A stretch of DNA of 64,000 nucleotides, from assembly GCF_048403405.1 (NCBI RefSeq), contig NZ_CP183129.1; one strand, 5' to 3'. This DNA is from Escherichia coli (GTDB taxonomy: Bacteria > Pseudomonadota > Gammaproteobacteria > Enterobacterales > Enterobacteriaceae). How positions within the stretch are numbered: the first letter of the stretch is position 1; the number at the start of each line of letters is the position of its first letter. The notes under the pieces are model-generated. The model searched no databases. It saw only the letters and a list, made by a program, of their open reading frames with translations, and had not been told where the DNA came from. Shown here one piece after another: positions 20,000-41,459 of this stretch. A program made the translations under genes and the position numbers.

Positions 20000-20977
<978 letters not shown>

Positions 20978-21171
20978 TTATCGTTATGATCTACAAAAGC
21001 CACCAGCATAACAAATCCGTGGTCGGTGGCAAAAAAAGCAGATTTCGCTTATTAAAACTGCACATTGATTGAAGTTTGAATAAACGCGCGATTTTTTAAA
21101 AAAGTTTGTTGACCTCAGGTCATGATTTCCCTAAATTAGCGCCCGTTCCAGCAAGACAGGAACGACAATTT

Positions 21172-21259
21172 GGTGAGGTGTCCGAGTGGCTGAAGGAGCA
21201 CGCCTGGAAAGTGTGTATACGGCAACGTATCGGGGGTTCGAATCCCCCCCTCACCGCCA
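21172..21259 (+). tRNA. serX: tRNA-Ser (anticodon GGA), 88 nt with long variable arm
   Basis: GGTGAGGTGTCCGAGTGGCTGAAGGAGCACGCCTGGAAAGTG...GGTTCGAATCCCCCCCTCACCGCCA; cloverleaf with GGA anticodon and 3' CCA. Confidence 0.93.
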
Positions 21260-21267
21260 TATTTAAA

Positions 21268-21302
21268 GAAGAGCTCGTACGAAAGTACGAGCTTTTTTTT
21301 CG
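21268..21302 (+). terminator. Intrinsic terminator after serX (gagctcgtac-gaaa-gtacgagctc + T8)
   Basis: Perfect 10-bp stem, GAAA tetraloop, eight T residues. Confidence 0.85.
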
Positions 21303-21363
21303 TATATTGCATAGACCGGGGGGATGAGAAGCCCCAGGCGGAGGTCGACAACTAGCGACAGAC

Positions 21364-22731
21364 TCATTCATCATCCTTGCGGTTGATAAGAATTTCTGCC
21401 TCTTTTACTACCACCTTATTACGCCCGGTCTCTTTCGCCTCGTAAAGTGCGTTATCAGCCAGTTGATAGATCTCCTTAGGGTTTAACTCATTTTTCTGCG
21501 TTACAACAGCGCCAATACTAATCGTCACTTTTTGTGGTATGGCGTATTCAGGATTATCACCAGTTAAACGCTCAACATTTTCCCGAATCCTTTCCGCTAA
21601 AGCTTTCGCACGTTCAGTATCGATGTCCGTCAGCAAGACGCCAAACTCTTCGCCGCCGACGCGCGCAAAAAGGTCATCTGGCCGTATGCTTTTCCCAATT
21701 ATACTCACCACTGTTTTTATCACCTGATCGCCAACCGGATGCCCCCAGGTGTCGTTGACTTTTTTGAAGTGGTCGATATCCATAATCATGACGCAATAAG
21801 GCGTTTTTTTGGCCGATGCTGATTGAACTGTCAGTTCATTAAAAAAATAATTTCTGTTAAATATATTGGTTAAGGAATCGCGATGTGCAATGTCCTTTGT
21901 TACTCGTAGCGCACTGAATATATGGCACATAAATATTACCATAACGGTTAACTTACTGACTACTTCAATAGTGCGACTAATATACCAAATGGACACGCTA
22001 TACCTGCTCATAAATAAAAGAGAGACATTGTACAGTACGGCACAAAAAGCAATCACCGTCACTCCATTCCAGATATCACAGCGTAAACCATTAAAGTATA
22101 GATTAACTGAAAGCAAGGTTAACCACATGAAAATCATTATGGTAACATATGATGTTTTCCAAACCACCTGATCATTTTCATTGGTTAACTCGGCAATGTG
22201 TAAATTGTAGCTCTCATAATGACTAGAAAGTATGTGAGCAACTATCGGCCCCCCAACAACAAAAAACAAACTTATGCACAAAGTCATTTTTTTGGAAAAT
22301 AAATTGCGCTGTTTTGTGTTTTCACTAACTTTATTCACCAATGCCAGAAATATTAATATGCACAAACTCATCTGACGAAACAAATAATAGATTGCAATGT
22401 CATTTTGAACAACACTGCTTGTCAAACGCCCCTCAATAATTTGCTGAATGATAATGACGGTTTTAACAAAGTAAATCAAACAACTCAGAAAAGCCAAACT
22501 AAGTATACAGTTTGAAAATTGCCTACGGTCATAAATGAAATACAACTGCATAAAAATAAATGCAACAGTATCGATAAAAAATAAAGCAATCATTACCATC
22601 AGATAGGTTGATCGTGGAACAACTTCCTCAACGCCTGGCTGATTAAACCAACTATTCACCAAAACCAAAGCAAGCCCAAACAATAAGCTCACTAATACAG
22701 TACTACTAATTCTCAAATAGTCTTTTTCCAT
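21364..22731 (-). CDS. dgcT: Diguanylate cyclase DgcT (YcdT): N-terminal membrane sensor domain plus GGDEF domain
   Basis: GGEEF active-site motif (RVGGEEFGVLL); N-terminal multi-TMS region; start taken at MEKDYLRISS; divergent from pgaA. Confidence 0.88.
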   Translation of the reverse strand: MEKDYLRISSTVLVSLLFGLALVLVNSWFNQPGVEEVVPRSTYLMVMIALFFIDTVAFIFMQLYFIYDRRQFSNCILSLAFLSCLIYFVKTVIIIQQIIEGRLTSSVVQNDIAIYYLFRQMSLCILIFLALVNKVSENTKQRNLFSKKMTLCISLFFVVGGPIVAHILSSHYESYNLHIAELTNENDQVVWKTSYVTIMIFMWLTLLSVNLYFNGLRCDIWNGVTVIAFCAVLYNVSLLFMSRYSVSIWYISRTIEVVSKLTVMVIFMCHIFSALRVTKDIAHRDSLTNIFNRNYFFNELTVQSASAKKTPYCVMIMDIDHFKKVNDTWGHPVGDQVIKTVVSIIGKSIRPDDLFARVGGEEFGVLLTDIDTERAKALAERIRENVERLTGDNPEYAIPQKVTISIGAVVTQKNELNPKEIYQLADNALYEAKETGRNKVVVKEAEILINRKDDE

Positions 22732-23079
22732 AAAGCTACACCAATCTGTAGGTTGTAGATCCCTTTCTATTATTAATAGATATAAGAACTGTACTGTTGT
22801 CAATATGAAATTCCGCCCACAAACAATACCGATGATGATAGTTGCATACCGCAATTATTATTGCCTTAGTGCTTTATACATTCTTCGCGACAAGACAGGC
22901 TTGCAAATACATATAAATGGTTATAAGGAAATCCTTATAAAACATTAATTCATAGATATATTAGGAATAACAATTGAATCCGTGAGTACAGTAACGCTGC
23001 ACTTCATCAGGACTTTCGAAAAATCCGATATCATGCATCGGAATTTACTGATTTAATTATTTTAATCCTAATTTATTTT

Positions 23080-23321
23080 GAAAAAGGCATTGGGATTTAT
23101 GCCGTATTCCTGAAGTTCCTCATCATTGGAATGGATTTTCAGGCGAGAAAAGGATTTTATATGGATACTCTACTCATCATTTCTTCTTCTCATCATCAAC
23201 AATTCACGTCTCTCTTCCGCGTTTAATAACGGATTATGATGTGCAAAAAAAATATCTTTCGTTTCAGTTACCTGTAATTAGATACAGAGAGAGATTTTGG
23301 CAATACATGGAGTAATACAGG
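23080..23321 (+). promoter_or_regulatory. pgaA 5' leader with multiple GGA motifs (candidate CsrA binding sites)
   Basis: Several GGA-containing motifs incl. one overlapping the SD (caggatg) seen in sequence; the pgaA leader is an established CsrA target. Confidence 0.55.
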
Positions 23322-25745
23322 ATGTATTCAAGTAGCAGAAAAAGGTGCCCGAAAACCAAATGGGCTTTGAAAATTCTTACTGCCGCATTTTTAGCAGCGA
23401 GTCCCGCGGCGAAGAGTGCTGCTAATAATGCCTATGATGCATTGATTATCGAAGCTCGCAAGGGAAATACTCAGCCAGCTTTGTTATGGTTTGCACAAAA
23501 ATCAGCACTCAGTAATAACCAAATTGCTGACTGGTTACAGATTGCCTTATGGGCCGGGCAAGATAAACAGGTTATTACCGTTTACAACCGCTACCGTCAT
23601 CAGCAATTACCAGCGCGTGGTTATGCAGCTGTCGCCGTCGCTTATCGTAACCTGCAACAATGGCAAAACTCGCTTACACTGTGGCAAAAGGCACTCTCTC
23701 TGGAGTCGCAAAATAAGGATTATCAACGGGGACAAATTTTAACCCTGGCAGATGCGGGTCACTATGATTCTGCGCTGGTTAAACTTAAGCAGCTTAACTC
23801 TGGAGCACCGGACAAAGCTAATTTACTCGCAGAAGCCTATATCTATAAACTGGCGGGGCGGCATGAGGATGAATTACGGGCGATGACAGGGTCATTACCT
23901 GAAAATGCCTTAACGCAACAATATCCCACAGAATACGTGCAGGCATTACGGAATAATCAACTTGCTGCCGCGATTGACGATGCCAATTTAACGCCAGATA
24001 TTCGCGCTGATATTCATGCCGAACTGGTCAGACTGTCGTTTATGCCTACGCGCAGTGAAAGTGAACGTTATGCCATTGCCGATCGCGCCCTCGCCCAATA
24101 CGCTGCATTAGAAATTCTGTGGCATGATAACCCTGACCGCACTGCCCAGTACCAGCGTATTCAGGTTGATCATCTTGGCGCGTTATTAACTCGCGATCGT
24201 TATAAAGACGTTATTTCTCACTATCAGCGTTTAAAAAAGACGGGGCAAATTATTCCGCCCTGGGCGCAATATTGGGTTGCGTCGGCTTATCTCAAAGAAC
24301 ATCAGCCAAAAAAAGCACAGTCAATAATGACAGAGCTCTTTTATCACAAGGAGACCATTGCCCCGGATTTATCCGATGAAGAACTTGCGGATCTCTTTTA
24401 CAGCCACCTGGAGAGTGAAAATTATCCCGGCGCGCTAACTGTCACCCAACATACCATTAATACTTCGCCGCCTTTCCTTCGGTTAATGGGCACGCCTACG
24501 AGCATCCCGAATGATACCTGGTTACAGGGGCATTCGTTTCTCTCAACCGTAGCTAAATATAGTAATGATCTTCCTCAGGCTGAAATGACAGCCAGAGAGC
24601 TTGCTTATAACGCACCAGGAAATCAGGGACTGCGCATTGATTACGCGAGTGTGTTACAAGCCCGCGGTTGGCCTCGTGCGGCAGAAAATGAATTAAAAAA
24701 AGCAGAAGTGATCGAGCCACGTAATATTAATCTGGAGGTTGAACAAGCCTGGACAGCATTAACGTTACAAGAATGGCAGCAGGCAGCGGTCTTAACGCAC
24801 GATGTTGTCGAACGTGAACCGCAAGATCCCGGCGTTGTACGTTTAAAACGTGCGGTTGATGTACATAATCTTGCAGAGCTTCGTATCGCTGGCTCAACAG
24901 GAATTGATGCCGAAGGTCCGGATAGTGGCAAACATGATGTCGACTTAACCACCATCGTTTATTCACCACCGCTGAATGATAACTGGCGCGGTTTTGCTGG
25001 ATTCGGTTATGCCGATGGACAATTTAGCGAAGGAAAAGGGATTATTCGCGACTGGCTTGCGGGTGTTGAGTGGCGGTCACGTAATATCTGGCTTGAGGCG
25101 GAGTACACCGAACGCTTTTTCAATCATGAGCATAAACCCGGCGCGCGCCTGTCTGGCTGGTATGATTTTAATGATAACTGGCGTATTGGTTCGCAACTGG
25201 AACGCCTCTCTCACCGCGTTCCATTACGGGCAATGAAAAATGGTGTTACAGGCAACAGTGCACAGGCTTATGTTCGCTGGTATCAAAATGAGCGGCGTAA
25301 GTACGGTGTCTCTTGGGCTTTCACTGATTTTTCTGACAGTAATCAGCGTCATGAAGTCTCACTTGAGGGTCAGGAACGCATCTGGTCTTCACCATATTTG
25401 ATTGTCGATTTCCTCCCCAATCTGTATTACGAACAAAATACAGAACACGACACCCCATACTACAACCCTATAAAAATGTTCGATATTGTTCCGGCATTTG
25501 AGGCAAGTCATTTGTTATGGCGAAGCTATGAAAATAGCTGGGAGCAAATATTCAGCGCAGGTGTTGGTGCCTCCTGGCAAAAACATTATGGCACGGATGT
25601 CGTCACCCAACTCGGCTACGGGCAACGCATTAGCTGGAATGACGTGATTGATGCTGGCGCAACGCTACGCTGGGAAAAACGACCTTATGACGGTGACAGA
25701 GAACACAACTTATACGTTGAATTCGATATGACATTCAGATTTTAA
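23322..25745 (+). CDS. pgaA: PGA (poly-beta-1,6-GlcNAc) outer-membrane export porin PgaA, 807 aa
   Basis: 807-aa ORF with signal peptide, TPR-like N-domain and C-terminal beta-barrel ending ...YVEFDMTFRF. Confidence 0.95.
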   Translation: MYSSSRKRCPKTKWALKILTAAFLAASPAAKSAANNAYDALIIEARKGNTQPALLWFAQKSALSNNQIADWLQIALWAGQDKQVITVYNRYRHQQLPARGYAAVAVAYRNLQQWQNSLTLWQKALSLESQNKDYQRGQILTLADAGHYDSALVKLKQLNSGAPDKANLLAEAYIYKLAGRHEDELRAMTGSLPENALTQQYPTEYVQALRNNQLAAAIDDANLTPDIRADIHAELVRLSFMPTRSESERYAIADRALAQYAALEILWHDNPDRTAQYQRIQVDHLGALLTRDRYKDVISHYQRLKKTGQIIPPWAQYWVASAYLKEHQPKKAQSIMTELFYHKETIAPDLSDEELADLFYSHLESENYPGALTVTQHTINTSPPFLRLMGTPTSIPNDTWLQGHSFLSTVAKYSNDLPQAEMTARELAYNAPGNQGLRIDYASVLQARGWPRAAENELKKAEVIEPRNINLEVEQAWTALTLQEWQQAAVLTHDVVEREPQDPGVVRLKRAVDVHNLAELRIAGSTGIDAEGPDSGKHDVDLTTIVYSPPLNDNWRGFAGFGYADGQFSEGKGIIRDWLAGVEWRSRNIWLEAEYTERFFNHEHKPGARLSGWYDFNDNWRIGSQLERLSHRVPLRAMKNGVTGNSAQAYVRWYQNERRKYGVSWAFTDFSDSNQRHEVSLEGQERIWSSPYLIVDFLPNLYYEQNTEHDTPYYNPIKMFDIVPAFEASHLLWRSYENSWEQIFSAGVGASWQKHYGTDVVTQLGYGQRISWNDVIDAGATLRWEKRPYDGDREHNLYVEFDMTFRF

Positions 25746-29091: not shown

Positions 29092-29505
29092 ATGAACAAT
29101 TTAATTATTACGACCCGACAATCGCCAGTACGTTTAATGGTTGATTATGTTGCCACAACCATCTTATGGACATTATTTGCTTTGTTCATATTCTTATTCG
29201 CAATGGATCTGCTGACGGGTTATTACTGGCAAAGCGAGGCCAGAAGCCGACTTCAGTTCTATTTTTTGCTGGCAGTGGCGAATGCCGTCGTGTTAATTGT
29301 CTGGGCGCTGTACAATAAGCTACGTTTTCAAAAACAGCAGCATCATGCAGCCTACCAATATACGCCGCAAGAATATGCTGAGAGCTTAGCAATACCTGAT
29401 GAGCTCTATCAGCAACTACAAAAAAGCCACAGGATGAGCGTACACTTCACCAGCCAGGGGCAAATAAAAATGGTGGTTTCAGAAAAAGCGCTAGTCCGGG
29501 CGTAA
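29092..29505 (+). CDS. pgaD: PGA synthesis protein PgaD, 137 aa
   Basis: 137-aa two-TMS ORF immediately after pgaC. Confidence 0.92.
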
Positions 29506-29518
29506 ACACCCAAAACAA

Positions 29519-29538
29519 AGCCCGGTTCGCCCGGGCTC
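29519..29538. terminator. Hairpin (agcccgg-ttcg-cccgggct) between convergent pgaD and phoH
   Basis: GC stem; T-run only on minus strand side (tttgttttg), so mainly a phoH terminator. Confidence 0.5.
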
Positions 29539-29554
29539 TGCGCCGATAATACAC

Positions 29555-30619
29555 TTAACTGTATGCATGTAGCGTACGTTGGCAAAGTGCCGAACGTACG
29601 CAATCCTCTTTACCGAATCGGACGATCCCGACCATTTCATCTTCTTCGAAACGTTCCAGCGCGTCACTTAATCCGGAGCGCACGCCGCGAGGCAAATCGC
29701 ATTGCGTGATATCACCGTTGACGATAACCGTCACGTTCTCCCCGAGGCGGGTTAAAAACATTTTCATTTGCGCGGCAGTCACATTCTGCGCCTCGTCAAG
29801 AATGACGACTGCATTTTCAAAGGTACGTCCACGCATATAGGCGAACGGCGCAATTTCCACCTTCCCTATTTCCGGTCGCAGGCAGTACTGCATAAAGGAA
29901 GCCCCTAAGCGCCGGACCAGCACGTCGTAGACCGGACGAAAATAGGGAGCAAACTTTTCTGCGATATCTCCAGGTAAGAAGCCAAGATCTTCATCGGCTT
30001 GCAGAACTGGACGGGTGACGATAATCCTGTCGACATCCTTATGTATCAGGGCCTCTGCCGCTTTTGCTGCGCTGATCCAGGTTTTTCCGCACCCGGCTTC
30101 GCCCGTGGCGAATATCAGCTGCTTACTCTCAATAGCCTTCAGATAGTGCAATTGCGCTTCATTTCGCGCGAGGATGGGCGAGGTATCGCGACTGTCGCGG
30201 GCCATACCAATGGCTTCTACGCCGCTCATCTGCACAAGCGAGGTGACCGATTCTTCTTCACGCTGCTTATGGCTGCGCGAATCCCGTCTCAGCACACGTT
30301 TTGCCTCGCGACGAGCTTTGATCACTGCTTTTTGTCTTCCCATGGAGAGCACCTTGAGTTGTTTGTATTCATCACACGCGCCGTTGGCAGCGCGATTATG
30401 CGCACGAACATCAGAGGGTTGGCTTCCTTGTAAGCCATAGTTTGCTTTTGGATAAAATGCCGAAAAACGGCTACGCGCACCGTTTACGGCGTCGGTAACA
30501 CATGAAAAGAAAGGATGAGGTTGAAAATACAAAGTGACGAGATGACTACCGGAGGAGAAATCTCCGCGAGTGGTGGCGCGCTGATTATCTAAAACATGTC
30601 CAGTACAGGACGTTACCAT
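29555..30619 (-). CDS. phoH: PhoH, phosphate-starvation-inducible ATPase (long form), 354 aa
   Basis: Walker A GEAGCGKT, PhoH-like C-terminal domain; 354 aa. Confidence 0.92.
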   Translation of the reverse strand: MVTSCTGHVLDNQRATTRGDFSSGSHLVTLYFQPHPFFSCVTDAVNGARSRFSAFYPKANYGLQGSQPSDVRAHNRAANGACDEYKQLKVLSMGRQKAVIKARREAKRVLRRDSRSHKQREEESVTSLVQMSGVEAIGMARDSRDTSPILARNEAQLHYLKAIESKQLIFATGEAGCGKTWISAAKAAEALIHKDVDRIIVTRPVLQADEDLGFLPGDIAEKFAPYFRPVYDVLVRRLGASFMQYCLRPEIGKVEIAPFAYMRGRTFENAVVILDEAQNVTAAQMKMFLTRLGENVTVIVNGDITQCDLPRGVRSGLSDALERFEEDEMVGIVRFGKEDCVRSALCQRTLHAYS

Positions 30620-30768
30620 CCGCGATCTCCATAGTGACTGACTATCACTGCCGGGAACTTCCGCTGCTACTTAATAATTACAACAGAACTCGCATTCATT
30701 GCAACAATATATTCACTTATATTTAACGATAAACACCCATTTCGGTGACATTAGTTTCTACTGGAAAG

Positions 30769-30786
30769 ATGACAGAGTGATGACAG
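30769..30786 (-). promoter_or_regulatory. Pho box (PhoB binding site) upstream of phoH
   Basis: Minus-strand sequence CTGTCAT-CACT-CTGTCAT: two 7-bp direct repeats with 4-bp spacer, the PhoB consensus architecture. Confidence 0.75.
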
Positions 30787-30837
30787 AGATGAAAAAAGCT
30801 GTGTGCTTTCAGCAGGATTCGCAGTACTGGTAAAAGC

Positions 30838-30875
30838 TTGCCGGATGCGGCGTGAACGCCTTACCCGACCTACAA
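30838..30875. repeat. REP element
   Basis: gccggatgcggcgtgaacgccttacccgacctac matches E. coli REP consensus. Confidence 0.6.
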
Positions 30876-30941
30876 GTGATTAATAATTTGTGCACCAAAC
30901 TCATGCCCGATAAACCTGCGCATCGGGCATATTTGCGTCGT

Positions 30942-32213
30942 TCAAACCTGTAATAGCGCCCTTCCCAGATAATCGTTCGTGTCCTTCACCCCCGGCAGCG
31001 CAAAAAAATAACCGCCGCCGATAGGTTTAACGTATTCCTCCAGCGCTTCGCCATTGAGCCTTTTTTGTACTGTCAGGAAGCCTTTTTCCAGATCGTGTTG
31101 GTAACAGACAAACAATAGCCCCATATCCAGTTGTCCGGAGTTGGTGACGCCCAACGAATAACTGTAGCCACGACGCAGCATCAGGCTGGACTCACTCTCT
31201 GGCGTGCGGGGATTCGCCAGCCGGATATGGCTGTCCAGCGCAATCACCTTCCCCTCCGGATCGCTGGCGTAATCGGGAACATCATGCTCATGCTGCATTC
31301 CCAGCGGCGCACCGGTTTGTTTGTCGCGACCAAAAATCGTCTGCTGTTCTTTCAGTGGCGTTCTGTCCCAAAACTCCACCCGAAACTGAATCAACCGCAC
31401 CGCCTGGTAGCTGCCGCCGATTGTCCACGCAGGCTCCTGCTGATCTGCCGTCACCCACACCACTTGTTGCATCAACTTATCATTCTGGCTATCGGGATTG
31501 GCAGTGCCGTCTTTGAAACCCAGCAAATTAATCGGCGTCTCTTTGCCTTTACTACGCGCTGCATGATCGGAAATAAACCCTTCCCGCTTCCAGCGCACGC
31601 TGAGCAAATCCGGCGTGTGTTTGATGATATCGCGCAGCGCATGGATCACCGTGTCCTGGGTGTTGGCGCAAATTTGTAGCAACACATCACCATGACATAA
31701 CGCCGCATCCAGCGAGTCGTTGGGGAAACGCGTCATTTTCTGCAACTTTTTCGGCATCTGCGGTGTAAGGCCAAACCGCTCATCAAACAATGAGTGGCCC
31801 ACCGATAACGTTATGGTGAGATTATCGGACGCAATGTAGCCGCCAAGAATGCCGGAATCGAGTGGAGGCAGGCGCGGATTTGGCGTTTCTGGTGCCGCTC
31901 CGCCCTGAGTCAGAAAAGCAAAACGCTGAGTCAACAAGCGAAACAACCGTTCAAGATCGGCTTTATCGCTGGCAAGCACATCAAACGCCACCAGCATCAT
32001 TGCGGCCTGTTGTGGCGTCAGGACCCCTGCCTGATGCTCACCATAAAACGGCTGTTTCTCATTGCGTGCATCCGGTGAAAGCGTTCCCGGTGCACTTTGC
32101 GTTTTTTGTGCATGAGCGACCGGACAACTTCCCGCCAGCGCCAGCGCACCAATCCCTTTCAGTAAACGTCGGCGTGACGGTTCATTCACGCCGTTTTCAT
32201 CTTCATACTGCAT
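30942..32213 (-). CDS. efeB: Dye-decolorizing (DyP) haem peroxidase EfeB (YcdB), Tat-secreted, 423 aa
   Basis: Twin-arginine signal [17 protein letters not shown]; 423 aa. Confidence 0.93.
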
Positions 32214-32218
32214 AACAC

Positions 32219-33346
32219 TTAATCCAGTCCCAGCACACCGCGAAGTTGCGCCAGATCTTCCGCCAGCGCAGTAATCGGCCCTTTCAGCGCGTTACGGTCG
32301 GCATCGGTCAATTTGTCGTAGGTTTCAAAACCGTCTTTAGTACGGTATTTCGCCAGAATGGTATCGACCTTTTTGAAGTTGGCATCGACTTTTGCCAGCA
32401 GTTCCGGGTTGGCTTTTTGTAGTTGTGGACGCAGCAGATCGACAATTTTCTGCGAGCCTTCAACGTTAGCCTGGAAATCCCACAGATCGGTGTGGCTGTA
32501 GCGATCTTCTTCACCGCTGATTTTGCTGGCTGCCACTTCCTCAATCAGTCCGGCTGCACCGCCGACCACTTTTGAAGGTGGGAAAGCCAGTTCACTGATG
32601 CGTTTTTGCAAATCGACCACATCGGTATAAAGCTGGTCAGCGTACTTATCCATCCCTTTAGTGGTGTTATCGCCAAACAATGCTTTTTCCAGACGGTGGA
32701 AACCGGTGAATTTTGGATCGGCGGCTTTTTGCTCGTAATCATCTTCACGGGCGTCAATGCTACCATCCAGATCGGAGAACAGTTCAGCAATCGGTTCAAT
32801 GCGCTCATAGTGCTGGCGCGTCGGCGCATACAGTGCTTTCGCTTTTTCGATATCGCCTGCTTTAATCGCGTCGGTAAAGGCTTTGGTGTCGGTCACCAGC
32901 TGTGTGGTTTCCGCCATGACATACGCTTTATATGCAGTAATTGCACCACCAAGACTTAACAGCGCATCACTTTGCGCCGCATCCGCCGTTGCCTCACCTT
33001 TGACGATCAACTTCCCTTTCGGGTTAGTCAGCAGACCGCAGGTCATATCGTATTCGCCAGGCTGTAAATTCGCCGTCATTTTCTGGCTAAAACCAGGGGC
33101 GATATTTTCCCGCTCTTCCACCACCATCACGCCTTTGAGGATCTCCCACTCCAGCGCCTTCTGGCTGTGGTTCTGAATAATGAACTGTGTTTTCCCGGCG
33201 TTAACCGTAATGGTCATCGGTTCGCACTGTTTATCTGTCACAGTGACTTTGACCTGCGGAATATCAGCGGCGTTAGCCATAAAAGCAGAAGAGAACAGCG
33301 CAGCCACGCTAAACTGCAATGCGTTACGGCGGAAGTTAATGGTCAT
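32219..33346 (-). CDS. efeO: Periplasmic iron-binding protein EfeO (YcdO), 375 aa
   Basis: 375-aa ORF with signal peptide; cupredoxin + M75 peptidase-like domains by recall. Confidence 0.93.
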
Positions 33347-33403
33347 GACGAGACTATCCCTTTAAAGTATGTTGTAACTAAGCAAGAGTTTGCGTCGTAT
33401 TTG

Positions 33404-34234
33404 TTACGCGGAGCGAGACGCTGTCGCCCCTGCGCGTGGTGGCAGAGCAAATGCCACCAGCGCCGGGATGAGATAAATAAACCAGACGGCGACTTCGCTG
33501 ACACTTGGCGCTTCCTGATAGCCAAAAATCCCTTCCATCAGCGTGCCAAACAGCGAGTGAGTTGAGAGCACCGCACTCATATCGAAGGCGATTTCCTGAA
33601 AGTGGTTCCACAATCCGGCTTCATGAAATGCGCGAATGGCACCAGCCGCCAGCCCTGCGGCGACGAAGAGAATAAACAGGCTGGTCCATTTAAAAAATGC
33701 ACCAAGATTGAGGCGAATACCGCCCCAGTAGAGCAGGAAGCCGAGCACCACGGCTGTAGCAAGACCGAGCATTGCACCCAGCGGCGGCCAGATCCCGACA
33801 TCTTGTTGAAATGCCGCCAGCAGGAAAAAGACCGACTCCAGCCCTTCCCTTGCAACGGCAAAAAAGACCATCATCACCAGCGCCCAGCCATGATGATTTC
33901 CACGCTGCAATGCGCTATCGACTGCCTGCTCCAGTTGTACTTTGACGTTGCGCGACACTTTGCGCATCCAGAAAACCATCCAGGTAAGGATCACCACGGC
34001 GATCACCGCCACGATACCTTCAAACAGTTCCTGTTCTTTTTGCGGAAATTCGCCGGTGGTTTCGTTAATGAAGATACCCAAGCCCAGGCACAACGCAGCG
34101 GCAAGCAACACGCCAATCCACATCACACCAATCCATCGGCCTCGCTGGGTACGCTTAAGATAGCTGGCAATCAAACTGACAATCAGCGCGGCTTCAAGTC
34201 CTTCGCGCAACATAATGAGAAATGGAACAAACAT
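33404..34234 (-). CDS. efeU: Ferrous iron permease EfeU (YcdN), intact, ~276 aa
   Basis: Uninterrupted ORF with two REGLE (RExxE) iron-binding motifs; start taken at MFVPFLIMLREGLE (track ORF begins 3 codons upstream). Confidence 0.9.
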   Translation of the reverse strand: MFVPFLIMLREGLEAALIVSLIASYLKRTQRGRWIGVMWIGVLLAAALCLGLGIFINETTGEFPQKEQELFEGIVAVIAVVILTWMVFWMRKVSRNVKVQLEQAVDSALQRGNHHGWALVMMVFFAVAREGLESVFFLLAAFQQDVGIWPPLGAMLGLATAVVLGFLLYWGGIRLNLGAFFKWTSLFILFVAAGLAAGAIRAFHEAGLWNHFQEIAFDMSAVLSTHSLFGTLMEGIFGYQEAPSVSEVAVWFIYLIPALVAFALPPRAGATASRSA

Positions 34235-34283
34235 GCCACCCACCCTTAAACGTTTTTCTGAGTCAATCTATGCAAAGAAAAGT

Positions 34284-34302
34284 AAATCGCAGTGATAGCG
34301 AT
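34284..34302 (-). promoter_or_regulatory. Candidate Fur box upstream of efeU
   Basis: gatagcgattatcattac resembles Fur consensus GATAATGATAATCATTATC; ~50 bp upstream of efeU start. Confidence 0.55.
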
Positions 34303-34887
34303 TATCATTACGGCAAAGAAAAATACAAGCGGAATGTTTATAAAATGATGTTGGAATGTAAACAAAGAGAGGTAATGCCAGGGGATATAAACAATTATTC
34401 CAGGTACAAAGATGGGATTGTTTACAACGAGCCATGTGTTCTTGCCAGATGCCGCGTAAACGCCTTATCCAGCCGACAAAACTGTCCAGACTCAATGCAT
34501 CAGAGCTTCCATGTAAAACTGATAAGCGGGTGTATCAAGCAATTTCGTCCATCCGCGATTATCAAATCTAACTTTTTGCCCGGAACATAATAACAGCTCG
34601 GGTGTTGGTGGCGTCAAAGTCGCTGAAGCGTTCCCCGAAGGCCGGGGCAGCCCACATGGATGTGGGCTGAGGGCGCGTCTTACAGGACATTACCTCGCGC
34701 CCGACCCGGTAGCCGAAGGGGATAAGCTGAAGGTACCGCGCAGCGGCGATTTTGTTCGCCAGAGCCCGGGGTGCAGGGGGTGGCGGCGATTGGCCGCCCC
34801 CTGCACCATTCAATTTATATGGCGAGGCACATTAAGGGAGCGCAACCCGCTGCTGAAGCCAAACAAAACCGCCGCAGGCTAAGTCCC

Positions 34888-36396
<1,509 letters not shown>

Positions 36397-36818
36397 CTAA
36401 AGTCTCCAAAAAATTATTATCGGCAATGTCGAAACTTGCCGTTATATCTGCCACCGGAACGGGGTAACAGAGTTTATGTTTTACCAGGGCGACCGTATCC
36501 TGCCGGAAGCGCCGGTTATTCACAATCGATTTAACACACCATTTACATTAAATTTTAGTGCTCAGCGACACTATTTTTCATCAGGTTGCACTCTCTCACA
36601 TTTTTTGCGGTTGCACCTTTCAAAAATGTTAACTGCCGCAGAGAAAAAGTCTGAGTTATTTTTTTAATCCCTGTCATATCGATTTCTTTTATTAACATTT
36701 CATTCATTTTTAAGCTTGCTACGCAGGTCACATTTAACATGGTTGCACAAAGTTGCAACATCATGGATATTTCACGATAACGTTAAGTTGCACCTTTCAG
36801 AACAACAGGAGTAATGGC
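36397..36818. promoter_or_regulatory. put control region between divergent putP and putA with GTTGCA PutA operator motifs
   Basis: Repeated GTTGCA motifs read at ~36586, ~36612, ~36739-36752 (inverted pair gttgcacaaagttgcaac) and ~36784. Confidence 0.75.
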
Positions 36819-39800
36819 ATGGGAACCACCACCATGGGGGTTAAGCTGGACGACGCGACGCGTGAGCGTATTAAGTCTGCCGCGACACGTATCGATCGCA
36901 CGCCACACTGGTTAATTAAGCAGGCGATTTTTTCTTATCTTGAACAACTGGAAAACAGCGATACTCTTCCGGAGCTACCTGCGCTGCTTTCTGGCGCTGC
37001 CAATGAGAGCGATGAAGCACCGACTCCGGCAGAGGAACCACACCAGCCTTTCCTCGACTTTGCCGAGCAAATTTTGCCCCAGTCGGTTTCCCGCGCCGCG
37101 ATCACCGCTGCCTATCGCCGTCCGGAAACCGAAGCGGTTTCGATGCTGCTGGAACAAGCCCGCCTGCCGCAGCCAGTTGCTGAACAGGCGCATAAACTGG
37201 CATATCAACTGGCCGATAAACTGCGTAATCAAAAAAATGCCAGTGGTCGCGCAGGTATGGTCCAGGGGTTATTGCAGGAGTTTTCGCTGTCATCGCAGGA
37301 AGGCGTGGCGCTGATGTGTCTGGCAGAAGCGTTGTTGCGTATTCCCGACAAAGCCACCCGTGATGCGTTAATTCGCGACAAAATCAGCAACGGTAACTGG
37401 CAGTCACACATTGGTCGTAGCCCGTCGTTGTTTGTTAATGCCGCCACCTGGGGGCTGCTGTTTACTGGCAAACTGGTTTCCACCCATAACGAAGCCAGCC
37501 TCTCCCGCTCGCTGAACCGCATTATCGGTAAGAGCGGTGAACCGCTGATCCGCAAAGGTGTGGATATGGCGATGCGCCTGATGGGCGAGCAGTTCGTCAC
37601 TGGCGAAACCATCGCGGAAGCGTTAGCCAATGCCCGCAAGCTGGAAGAGAAAGGTTTCCGTTACTCCTACGATATGCTGGGCGAAGCCGCGCTGACCGCC
37701 GCAGATGCACAGGCGTATATGGTTTCCTATCAACAGGCGATTCACGCTATTGGTAAAGCGTCCAATGGTCGTGGCATCTATGAAGGTCCGGGCATTTCAA
37801 TAAAGCTGTCGGCGCTGCATCCGCGTTACAGCCGCGCCCAGTATGACCGGGTAATGGAAGAGCTTTACCCACGTCTGAAATCACTCACCCTGCTGGCGCG
37901 TCAGTACGATATTGGTATTAACATCGATGCCGAAGAGGCCGATCGTCTGGAGATCTCCCTCGATCTGCTGGAAAAACTCTGTTTCGAGCCGGAACTGGCA
38001 GGCTGGAACGGCATCGGTTTTGTTATTCAGGCTTATCAAAAACGCTGTCCGTTGGTGATTGATTATCTGATTGATCTCGCCACCCGCAGCCGTCGCCGTC
38101 TGATGATTCGCCTGGTGAAAGGCGCGTACTGGGATAGTGAAATCAAGCGTGCACAGATGGACGGCCTTGAAGGTTATCCGGTTTATACCCGCAAGGTGTA
38201 TACCGACGTTTCATATCTCGCCTGTGCGAAAAAGCTGCTGGCGGTGCCGAATCTAATCTACCCGCAGTTCGCAACGCATAACGCCCATACGCTGGCGGCA
38301 ATTTATCAACTGGCGGGTCAGAACTACTACCCGGGTCAGTACGAGTTCCAGTGCCTGCACGGTATGGGCGAGCCACTGTATGAGCAGGTCACCGGGAAAG
38401 TTGCCGACGGCAAACTTAACCGTCCGTGTCGTATTTATGCTCCTGTCGGTACACATGAAACGCTGCTGGCGTATCTGGTGCGTCGCCTGCTGGAAAACGG
38501 TGCTAACACCTCGTTTGTTAACCGTATTGCTGACACCTCTTTGCCACTGGATGAACTGGTCGCCGATCCGGTCACTGCTGTAGAAAAACTGGCGCAACAG
38601 GAAGGGCAAACTGGATTACCGCATCCGAAAATTCCCCTGCCGCGCGATCTTTACGGTCACGGGCGCGACAACTCGGCAGGGCTGGATCTCGCTAACGAAC
38701 ACCGTCTGGCCTCGCTCTCTTCTGCCCTGCTCAATAGTGCACTGCAAAAATGGCAGGCCTTGCCAATGCTGGAACAACCGGTCACGGCTGGTGAGATGTC
38801 GCCCGTTATTAACCCGGCAGAGCCGAAAGATATTGTGGGCTATGTGCGCGAAGCCACGCCGAGTGAAGTAGAACAGGCGCTGGAAAGTGCGGTTAATAAC
38901 GCACCAATCTGGTTTGCCACGCCTCCGGCTGAACGCGCGGCAATTTTGCATCGCGCTGCCGTGCTGATGGAAAGCCAGATGCAGCAACTGATTGGTATTC
39001 TGGTGCGTGAGGCCGGAAAAACCTTCAGTAACGCCATTGCCGAAGTGCGCGAAGCGGTCGATTTTCTCCACTACTACGCCGGACAGGTGCGGGATGATTT
39101 CGCTAACGAAACCCACCGTCCATTAGGGCCTGTGGTATGTATCAGTCCGTGGAACTTCCCGCTGGCGATTTTCACCGGGCAGATCGCCGCCGCACTGGCG
39201 GCAGGTAACAGCGTGCTGGCAAAACCGGCAGAACAAACGCCGCTGATTGCCGCGCAAGGGATCGCAATTTTGCTGGAAGCGGGTGTACCACCAGGCGTGG
39301 TGCAATTGCTGCCAGGTCAGGGGGAAACCGTGGGCGCGCAACTGACGGGTGATGATCGCGTGCGCGGGGTGATGTTTACCGGTTCAACCGAAGTCGCTAC
39401 GTTACTGCAACGCAATATCGCCAGCCGCCTGGACGCTCAGGGTCGCCCTATTCCGCTCATCGCGGAAACCGGCGGCATGAACGCGATGATTGTCGATTCT
39501 TCAGCACTGACCGAACAAGTCGTAATAGATGTGCTGGCCTCGGCGTTCGACAGTGCGGGTCAGCGTTGTTCGGCACTGCGCGTGCTGTGCCTGCAAGATG
39601 AGATTGCCGACCACACGTTGAAAATGCTGCGCGGCGCAATGGCCGAATGCCGGATGGGTAATCCGGGTCGCCTGACCACCGATATCGGTCCGGTGATTGA
39701 TAGCGAAGCGAAAGCCAATATTGAGCGTCATATTCAGACTATGCGTAGTAAAGGCCGTCCGGTGTTCCAGGCGGTGCGGGAAAACAGTGAAGATGCCCGT

Positions 39801-40781
39801 GAATGGCAAAGCGGCACCTTTGTCGCGCCGACGCTTATCGAACTGGATGATTTTGCCGAATTGCAAAAAGAGGTCTTTGGTCCGGTGCTGCATGTGGTGC
39901 GTTATAACCGTAACCAGCTGCCGGAGCTGATCGAGCAGATTAACGCTTCCGGTTATGGTCTGACGCTTGGCGTCCATACGCGCATTGATGAAACCATCGC
40001 CCAGGTCACTGGCTCGGCCCATGTCGGTAACCTGTACGTTAACCGTAATATGGTGGGCGCAGTGGTCGGGGTGCAGCCATTCGGCGGCGAAGGGTTGTCC
40101 GGCACCGGGCCGAAAGCAGGCGGTCCGCTCTATCTCTACCGTCTGCTGGCGAATCGCCCGGAAAGTGCACTGGCAGTGACGCTCGCGCGTCAGGATGCAG
40201 AGTATCCGGTCGATGCGCAGTTGAAAGCCGCATTGACTCAGCCGCTAAATGCACTGCGGGAATGGGCGGCAAACCGTCCAGAATTGCAGGCGTTATGTAC
40301 GCAATATGGCGAGCTGGCGCAGGCAGGAACACAACGATTGCTGCCAGGGCCGACGGGTGAACGCAACACCTGGACGCTGCTGCCGCGTGAGCGCGTGTTG
40401 TGTATTGCGGATGATGAGCAGGATGCGCTGACTCAGCTCGCCGCCGTGCTGGCGGTGGGCAGCCAGGTGCTGTGGCCGGATGACGCGCTGCATCGTCAGT
40501 TAGTGAAGGCATTGCCATCGGCAGTCAGCGAACGTATTCAACTGGCGAAAGCGGAAAATATAACCGCTCAACCGTTTGATGCGGTGATCTTCCACGGTGA
40601 TTCGGATCAGCTTCGCGTATTGTGTGAAGCAGTTGCCGCGCGGGATGGCGCAATTGTTTCGGTGCAGGGTTTTGCCCGTGGCGAAAGCAATATCCTGCTG
40701 GAACGGCTGTATATCGAGCGTTCGCTGAGTGTGAATACCGCTGCCGCTGGCGGTAACGCCAGTTTAATGACGATCGGTTAA
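36819..40781 (+). CDS. putA: Bifunctional proline dehydrogenase / P5C dehydrogenase and transcriptional repressor PutA, 1320 aa
   Basis: Track ORF 1342 aa; start at MGTTTMGVKLDDATRERIKSAA (ribbon-helix-helix DNA-binding N-terminus) gives 1320 aa. Confidence 0.95.
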   Translation: MGTTTMGVKLDDATRERIKSAATRIDRTPHWLIKQAIFSYLEQLENSDTLPELPALLSGAANESDEAPTPAEEPHQPFLDFAEQILPQSVSRAAITAAYRRPETEAVSMLLEQARLPQPVAEQAHKLAYQLADKLRNQKNASGRAGMVQGLLQEFSLSSQEGVALMCLAEALLRIPDKATRDALIRDKISNGNWQSHIGRSPSLFVNAATWGLLFTGKLVSTHNEASLSRSLNRIIGKSGEPLIRKGVDMAMRLMGEQFVTGETIAEALANARKLEEKGFRYSYDMLGEAALTAADAQAYMVSYQQAIHAIGKASNGRGIYEGPGISIKLSALHPRYSRAQYDRVMEELYPRLKSLTLLARQYDIGINIDAEEADRLEISLDLLEKLCFEPELAGWNGIGFVIQAYQKRCPLVIDYLIDLATRSRRRLMIRLVKGAYWDSEIKRAQMDGLEGYPVYTRKVYTDVSYLACAKKLLAVPNLIYPQFATHNAHTLAAIYQLAGQNYYPGQYEFQCLHGMGEPLYEQVTGKVADGKLNRPCRIYAPVGTHETLLAYLVRRLLENGANTSFVNRIADTSLPLDELVADPVTAVEKLAQQEGQTGLPHPKIPLPRDLYGHGRDNSAGLDLANEHRLASLSSALLNSALQKWQALPMLEQPVTAGEMSPVINPAEPKDIVGYVREATPSEVEQALESAVNNAPIWFATPPAERAAILHRAAVLMESQMQQLIGILVREAGKTFSNAIAEVREAVDFLHYYAGQVRDDFANETHRPLGPVVCISPWNFPLAIFTGQIAAALAAGNSVLAKPAEQTPLIAAQGIAILLEAGVPPGVVQLLPGQGETVGAQLTGDDRVRGVMFTGSTEVATLLQRNIASRLDAQGRPIPLIAETGGMNAMIVDSSALTEQVVIDVLASAFDSAGQRCSALRVLCLQDEIADHTLKMLRGAMAECRMGNPGRLTTDIGPVIDSEAKANIERHIQTMRSKGRPVFQAVRENSEDAREWQSGTFVAPTLIELDDFAELQKEVFGPVLHVVRYNRNQLPELIEQINASGYGLTLGVHTRIDETIAQVTGSAHVGNLYVNRNMVGAVVGVQPFGGEGLSGTGPKAGGPLYLYRLLANRPESALAVTLARQDAEYPVDAQLKAALTQPLNALREWAANRPELQALCTQYGELAQAGTQRLLPGPTGERNTWTLLPRERVLCIADDEQDALTQLAAVLAVGSQVLWPDDALHRQLVKALPSAVSERIQLAKAENITAQPFDAVIFHGDSDQLRVLCEAVAARDGAIVSVQGFARGESNILLERLYIERSLSVNTAAAGGNASLMTIG

Positions 40782-40788
40782 GCAGGAA

Positions 40789-40816
40789 GCCGGAGGATGT
40801 TACAACCTCCTCCGGC
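40789..40816. terminator. Hairpin between convergent putA and rutR (gccggagga...cctcctccggc)
   Basis: 9-11 bp GC-rich inverted repeat immediately after putA stop and rutR stop. Confidence 0.6.
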
Positions 40817-40820
40817 ATCT

Positions 40821-41459
40821 TTAACGTGGTCGAATCCCCTCAATAATAATCCGCTGCACGTTTTCAACCGTTTGATTGAAAAATACCTCATCGCGCAACG
40901 TCGCGCCTGTCACCGCCTCCACCTGAGGGGCGAAATCGGCGTAATGTTGAGTGGAAGCCCAAATCATAAAAATCAAATGCTGCGGGTCAATCGGCGCGAG
41001 TTTGCCGCTTTTGACCCAACCGGCAATCAGCGCCGATTTCTCATCAATTAATGCCTTCAAATCGCCCGTCAGTTCATCCATTAACAACGGCGCGCCTGCC
41101 AGCATCTCCATACAAAACAGACGTGAAGCCTGCGGATAATCGCGTGAGACTTCCAGCTTCAGACGGATGTACTCTTTGATCGCCGCCAGCGGGGCGAAAT
41201 CTTCACGAAACGCTTTTAACGGTGCCAGCCAGATATCGAGAATCTGCCGCAGTACGGCTATATACAGCGCCTCTTTTGACGGGAAGTAATACAGCAGATT
41301 GGTTTTTGAAACGCCTGCCAACTCTGCGATCTGCTCCAGCCTTGTGCCGTGAAAACCGAATTGTGAAAAAGTGTCCAGTGCTGCGCTAAGAATCGCTTTT
41401 TTCTTCGCGCTCACTGCGCGCGAACGTTTACCCGTTGTTTTCACTGCGCCTTGCGTCAT
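40821..41459 (-). CDS. rutR: TetR-family repressor RutR, 212 aa
   Basis: Track ORF 221 aa; start at MTQGAVKTTGKRSR gives 212 aa; TetR HTH. Confidence 0.92.
   Translation of the reverse strand: MTQGAVKTTGKRSRAVSAKKKAILSAALDTFSQFGFHGTRLEQIAELAGVSKTNLLYYFPSKEALYIAVLRQILDIWLAPLKAFREDFAPLAAIKEYIRLKLEVSRDYPQASRLFCMEMLAGAPLLMDELTGDLKALIDEKSALIAGWVKSGKLAPIDPQHLIFMIWASTQHYADFAPQVEAVTGATLRDEVFFNQTVENVQRIIIEGIRPR

Follow-up and report, generated by a model that had tools for sequence, protein, structure and literature searches.

Results and discussion

An unoccupied attachment site at serX

The stretch of Escherichia coli DNA analysed here (64,000 nucleotides of contig NZ_CP183129.1, referred to below as the window) very probably carries an unoccupied chromosomal attachment site (attB) at the tRNA gene serX, set in the 'short' backbone version of the interval between serX and the diguanylate cyclase gene dgcT. 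An earlier note on this DNA had stated that no genes lie between the two, and this proved to be correct: ARAGORN, Rfam and the list of open reading frames leave only a 104-bp spacer (21260-21363) between a tRNA gene identical to that of K-12 and dgcT, with no integrase gene and no island genes between them in the window. The spacer holds no notable open reading frame, those listed at 21106-21374 merely overlapping the tRNA. The features of the region are the following.

21109..21137, + strand: candidate sigma-70 promoter of serX (TTGACC, 17-nt spacer, TAAATT), from a consensus scan (9/12 matches)
21172..21259, + strand: serX, an intact tRNA-Ser(GGA), from ARAGORN, the Rfam tRNA model, identity to K-12 and synteny with ghrA
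21246..21259, + strand: 14-bp attachment core CCCCCTCACCGCCA, the last 14 nt of serX, from core searches and occupied relatives
21260..21361, + strand: the opening 102 nt of an RtT-like unit of 181 bp, not counting the 19-nt copy of the tRNA 3' end with which the unit starts, from alignment with K-12
21265..21300, no strand assigned: hairpin common to the convergent serX and dgcT transcripts, with a G+C-rich stem at 21272-21293, from folding and a terminator-site scan
21362..21407, - strand: haplotype-specific 46 bp, comprising the dgcT stop and the last 13 codons (KEAEILINRKDDE), from alignment with K-12 and protein alignment
21364..22731, - strand: dgcT (ycdT), a gene for a MASE4-GGDEF diguanylate cyclase (455 aa plus stop), from Pfam and annotation in identical genomes

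The tRNA gene is the only one that ARAGORN detects in the 64-kb window; it scores 53.8 bits against the Rfam tRNA model (gathering score 29), folds into a cloverleaf with the anticodon GGA and matches K-12 serX at 88 of 88 positions. We call it serX, rather than its identical paralogue serW, because its neighbours on the 5' side are ghrA, ycdX, ycdY, ycdZ and csg. The candidate promoter ends 35 nt ahead of the tRNA start and, together with the strong hairpin downstream, would make serX a stand-alone gene with a promoter and a terminator of its own. The convergent dgcT, whose stop codon is the TGA at 21364-21366 and beyond which lies pgaABCD, takes its name from the annotation of the open reading frame 21364-22731 in the 100%-identical genome GN02461, and its product matches the Pfam families MASE4 (2.8e-69) and GGDEF (2e-50), the GGDEF domain ending at residue 439.

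The 14-nt sequence that closes serX, CCCCCTCACCGCCA, is the crossover and direct-repeat sequence of islands with P4-family integrases that use serX or serW. Perfect 14-bp repeats of TGGCGGTGAGGGGG, the last 14 bp of serX/serW, are known to flank OI-43/OI-48 and the Shigella SRL island (PMC3064760, PMC7545054), and P4-family integrases and a precise excision that restores intact serX have been described for OI-48 and the SRL PAI (PMC3064760, PMC7545054). These 14 nt are where the P4-family tyrosine integrases of islands such as PAI-CFT073-serX, O157 OI-48/SpLE1 and the Shigella SRL island cross over; their integration regenerates the tRNA at one end of the island, and a 14-bp copy stays behind at the other. 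A search for attL/attR-like repeats, as the earlier note had proposed, found the core once in 64 kb and no second direct repeat: the 14-nt core, with one mismatch or fewer allowed, occurs in the whole window at the tRNA end alone, the last 19 nt of the tRNA, with up to three mismatches, recover the tRNA itself alone, and a general repeat search of the 15-35 kb part of the window returned only short families at chance level.

Occupied relatives

That serX is an integration site for islands in some pathotypes, as the earlier note stated, agrees both with the literature (PMC3064760, PMC7545054) and with the islands that we saw at serX in CFT073, ETEC4071, 00_3305, EC22 and O157. The most direct comparison is with PAI-CFT073-serX of the uropathogenic strain CFT073, which shares with the backbone of the window the 455-aa dgcT, an identical spacer and 14-bp core beside dgcT, and an intact serX beside ghrA. 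The order in CFT073 is dgcT, spacer, CCCCCTCACCGCCA, a tyrosine integrase gene, the remainder of the 113-kb island, intact serX and ghrA; 113 kb thus lie between two copies of the 14-bp sequence, with the integrase gene at the dgcT end, where the window has nothing. Over the stretch read, the window from 21172 to about 21400 is the exact join of the two flanks of the CFT073 island. The porcine strain ETEC4071 has the layout of CFT073, with the integrase gene beside the 14-bp remnant that adjoins dgcT, while in O157:H7 the integrase gene again lies beside the remnant and the remnant adjoins ycdU. In 00_3305 and EC22 the end of the island adjoins the intact tRNA. Matches to the window in island-occupied genomes begin exactly at 21246, the first position of the core. 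Judging from its identity to sites used in these other strains, the serX of the window would be competent for integration.

The genome differs from its occupied relatives in that no island, whether of the PAI-CFT073-serX, OI-48/SpLE1 or SRL type, lies at serX, and it carries no OI-47-like island either. It falls among the strains with the 'short' serX-dgcT backbone and the 455-aa DgcT, a placement whose significance is small beyond the description of the strain.

Frequency of the empty arrangement and the possibility of past excision

The frequency of each state of the interval was counted among 5426 complete E. coli genomes. The exact junction of serX, spacer and dgcT (21172-21440), matched in one place, is present in 1119 of them (20.6%), and the window-type dgcT junction (21262-21430), which is counted whether serX is occupied or empty, in 1436 (26.5%); subtraction of the first number from the second therefore leaves about 317 genomes in which a window-type backbone has an occupied serX. 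The K-12-type segment ymdE'-ycdU is present in 2601 genomes (47.9%), and in 1044 (19.2%) pgaABCD-dgcT is absent and a DUF2726 gene lies between the RtT unit and phoH. This last state was seen in GmM066 and S1-CAM-04-C, in which the only gene between an RtT-like unit and phoH has a DUF2726 domain. Identity across 21172-21440 is 99.3-100% in GN02461, 4621, MS 69-1 and an O25b:H4 genome and the lowest value among the 1119 is 96.3%; all 13 sampled matches to the exact junction, that of the O25b:H4 genome included, were single pieces of 269 bp. A looser query for contiguity returned 1222 genomes, a count that includes IS3 derivatives such as BE2-5 (see below).

These figures qualify the description of the empty configuration as a strain-level difference: the interval is indeed polymorphic, between lineages, but the state seen here, with its share of one-fifth of complete genomes, is not unusual. 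The arrangement is an ordinary and common backbone haplotype that is already known, being implicit in hundreds of annotated genomes and explicit in published work on serX islands. GN02461, 4621, MS 69-1 and the O25b:H4 genome share the tRNA, the 104-bp spacer and the 455-aa dgcT with the window and show no substantial difference from it.

The closest genomes were identified in the efeB-putA region (window 29500-41000, 11.5 kb), where only eight of 5437 matching records reach 99% identity or more, so that the lineage appears sparsely sampled. Six records are identical at about 100% over this region (GN02461, 4621, MS 69-1, TUM1226, TUM14771 and OX030728), and the sources recorded among them are blood (two), colon (one) and faeces (one). 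Five of these (GN02461, 4621, MS 69-1, TUM1226 and TUM14771) were checked at serX, and all have the tRNA, the 104-bp spacer and dgcT.

An empty site might also be one that was emptied, an island at serX having been present once and lost by precise, integrase-mediated excision between the 14-bp direct repeats. We regard such a history as improbable, while noting that it would be mechanistically unremarkable: the excision of OI-48 and of the SRL island is documented to be precise and to restore an intact serX (PMC3064760, PMC7545054), the window has the sequence expected as the recombination product of a CFT073-like occupied state, and serX is occupied in the next-nearest lineage, that of porcine ETEC (ETEC4071, for example, with 98.9% identity in efe-putA). 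Nothing in the window speaks positively for excision, although by definition no scar would be expected. All five of the closest genomes are empty, as are about 78% of the genomes with the backbone of the window (1119/1436), and because both the closest relatives and most genomes with the same backbone lack an island, a site that was never occupied is the more economical reading; the sequence alone separates the two histories in neither direction. The earlier note had gone further and taken the empty configuration as showing that the tRNA had never served as an attachment site in this lineage. This does not follow: precise excision restores an intact serX (PMC3064760, PMC7545054) and, because such excision, at the 14-bp repeats, is scarless, a claim of 'never used' is not provable. 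An empty tRNA site should not be read as proof that the site has never been used.

Comparison with K-12 and O157:H7

The earlier note stated that ycdU, ymdE and a copy of IS3 lie in this interval in K-12, and the annotation of MG1655 agrees, giving the order dgcT (452 aa), IS3D (insE4/insF4), ymdE (pseudogene), ycdU, serX and ghrA. K-12 MG1655 and the window are alike in their flanking genes, in an identical serX and in the repeat-unit sequence that directly follows the tRNA. They differ in that K-12 has 2760 bp (L001 6202-8961, holding IS3D, ymdE' and ycdU) in place of 87 bp in the window (21321-21407), and in that three full 181-bp repeat units are added after serX in K-12. The interval in the window has no homology to L001 6202-8961, and neither ymdE'-ycdU nor the RDVVNFCESP tail that marks the K-12 type was found in it.

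The origin of the K-12 genes becomes clearer from O157:H7 (Z1615), where dgcT is separated from ycdU by an island of about 33 kb, and ycdU from serX by the tellurite/urease island OI-48, which occupies the same locus and uses the same 14-bp core (PMC3064760); the window has neither island. The stretch of about 33 kb corresponds to OI-47, given as 31,727 bp comprising z1528-z1556 (PMC8565820). It encodes an EAL protein, a regulator, fimbrial genes, an FHA-like two-partner system and a fatty-acid/polyketide-like cluster, and it ends with a full-length gene for an ACP S-malonyltransferase (fabD-like), followed by ycdU. Here dgcT has a tail of the K-12 type, with no IS3 after it. In the comparison with K-12 (L001 6235-7600), the two sequences part 10 bp beyond the stop codon of dgcT: up to there they are identical, and then IS3D starts in K-12 and the island continues in O157. 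The ymdE pseudogene of K-12 corresponds to the 3' part of the full-length ACP S-malonyltransferase gene of the island, its 5' end being missing beyond IS3. Because IS3D begins where O157 enters OI-47, and because ymdE lacks its 5' end, ymdE'-ycdU of K-12 are what remains of an OI-47-like island after an IS3-associated deletion cut it short.

This has a bearing on how the K-12 locus is to be described. The junction of the OI-47-like island with dgcT falls within the last codons of that gene, and the junction on the serX side lies 62 nt inside an RtT-like unit; no 14-bp repeats flank the island. The K-12 arrangement derives from a different backbone, in which an OI-47-like island lay between dgcT and the repeats and was later cut by IS3, and the IS3, ymdE and ycdU of K-12 are not an insertion at the tRNA site. 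By the criterion of the integrase, the serX of K-12 is itself unoccupied. The implication of the earlier note that these genes fill the tRNA site is not borne out, since they are the IS3-truncated remnant of an OI-47-like island, and we caution against taking ymdE-ycdU-IS3 in K-12 for a tRNA-site insertion.

The two backbones are also distinguished by dgcT itself. Homology to K-12 ends at 21361 and restarts, within dgcT, at 21407/21408, and in the protein alignment the tail of DgcT reads ...GRNKVVVKEAEILINRKDDE in the window, compared with ...GRNKVVVRDVVNFCESP in K-12. Both tails fall past the GGDEF domain. We observed that the C-terminal form of DgcT follows the backbone haplotype, with 455 aa ending in KEAEILINRKDDE in one and 452 aa ending in RDVVNFCESP in the other (K-12, at L001 6202-6235, and O157).

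These 46 window-specific bases are one reason why we think it very improbable that the short interval arose secondarily, by deletion of IS3, ymdE, ycdU and the extra RtT repeats from a K-12-like state. Repeat copy number does vary between genomes, and BE2-5 and DP051 have lost ymdE-ycdU by a deletion adjacent to IS3, but a deletion cannot create bases that encode a different DgcT tail, and these known derivatives retain both IS3 and the K-12 tail. Moreover, the features that are plainly derived, IS3 and a truncated pseudogene, belong to the K-12 type, and the window-type junction is shared with an outgroup that is about 90% identical (see below). In BE2-5 (L036 2920-2930) and DP051 the order is serX, RtT unit(s), IS3 and dgcT with the K-12 tail, with no ymdE-ycdU; as IS3-adjacent deletion derivatives of the K-12 type, they resemble the short interval in coarse comparisons and differ from the window.

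The polarity of the change rests on one outgroup, since a DgcT scan of the contigs of species-dereplicated genomes gave a single Escherichia locus. The other 26 matches of the scan were to distant GGDEF proteins, except for one, to a 214-bp contig that is a probable contaminant; this contig, NZ_BPQV01000098.1 from an assembly of Methylobacterium organophilum, carries an 87%-identical DgcT fragment that is most likely E. coli contamination. In the outgroup locus (L009, deposited as E. coli SCPM-O-B-8794), identity is only about 90% across csg-ghrA and about 80% across dgcT-pga. After serX it has a short unit of 106 bp, a complete unit of 181 bp (46.9 bits against RtT), a truncated unit and a 455-aa dgcT, so that two extra repeat units are its sole difference from the layout of the window. 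The truncated unit ends, as in the window, in '...ggcgacaga' just before the dgcT stop, and the DgcT tail resembles that of the window. Because the outgroup shares it, the junction of truncated unit and dgcT would predate the split of the two lineages. On the evidence of this one locus, the window-type backbone is probably the older state, although transfer of the approximately 80%-identical dgcT-pga block is a possible alternative.

The spacer and its repeat unit

The compactness of the interval can hardly be an artefact of assembly in which repeats or an island were collapsed, a possibility that we discount almost entirely: RtT-like units are tandem repeats that short-read assemblers may collapse, but the 1119 complete genomes that contain the same 269-bp junction come from many laboratories, and the spacing is the same, to the base, in the five closest complete genomes.

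The earlier note described the spacer as about 100 bp, mostly a strong terminator. The length (104 bp) and the strength of the hairpin are as stated, but the terminator covers only approximately 36-42 of the 104 bp, about one-third. The hairpin at 21265-21300, a 16-bp stem with a 9-bp G+C-rich core that is followed by a run of eight T residues, folds with -21.3 kcal/mol (z = -6.5), a stability equalled by none of 200 shuffled sequences, and it is predicted as an intrinsic terminator. The T8 run follows the hairpin on the + strand, and a weaker T-rich tail is present on the - strand. By consensus and thermodynamic prediction, we infer that the hairpin is a strong intrinsic (Rho-independent) terminator for serX.

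The terminator lies within the truncated RtT-like unit. In K-12, 3.4 tandem copies of a 181-bp unit lie downstream of serX (L001 8962-9584), each opening with the last 19 nt of the tRNA. The corresponding sequence in the window, 21241-21361, consists of the last 19 nt of the tRNA and 102 nt more, and it has four matches downstream of serX in K-12, including three extra copies (92.6-96.3% identical). It stops where dgcT begins, the stop codon of dgcT lying 2 nt past the end of the unit. K-12 thus carries the 14-bp att core four times in tandem and the window retains a single truncated unit.

Many RefSeq genomes annotate the repeat units at serX as 'RtT sRNA'. The copies in K-12 score 46.3, 46.3 and 36.1 bits against Rfam RtT (RF00391; gathering score 45), whereas no match to RtT at E <= 1 was found in window positions 20500-23500, so that the unit of the window falls short of the 45-bit threshold. 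We would accordingly class it, from its sequence, as a truncated unit and not as a member of the RtT family. Its organization is like that of the RtT RNA repeats of the tyrT operon (RF00391), the tRNA 3' end and the terminator being followed in both by the GGGGGGAUGAGAAGCCCC hairpin, although the window holds just the 5' part of one unit. Spacer matches to the Rfam families sX4, MicC, Thr_leader and STnc320 were far below their gathering scores and were taken as noise from the tRNA and the terminator.

Two speculations may be added, to which we attach little probability. The truncated RtT-like unit and the dgcT stop, which are kept together in E. coli and in the approximately 90%-identical Escherichia, might act as a 3' element common to the convergent serX and dgcT transcripts, one that influences the stability of dgcT mRNA or gives rise to a small RNA. 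The other speculation is that the number of RtT units, each with a 14-bp core, might set how many islands can stack at serX, the window then representing the minimal, single-core state.

The outgroup locus provides an example of how the number and length of the repeats at serX change. Within L009 7566-7786, the 106-bp short unit apparently arose by recombination of the T-arm sequence of the tRNA, 'ggggttcgaatcc', with the similar 'ggggttcgacaac' inside the RtT-like unit.
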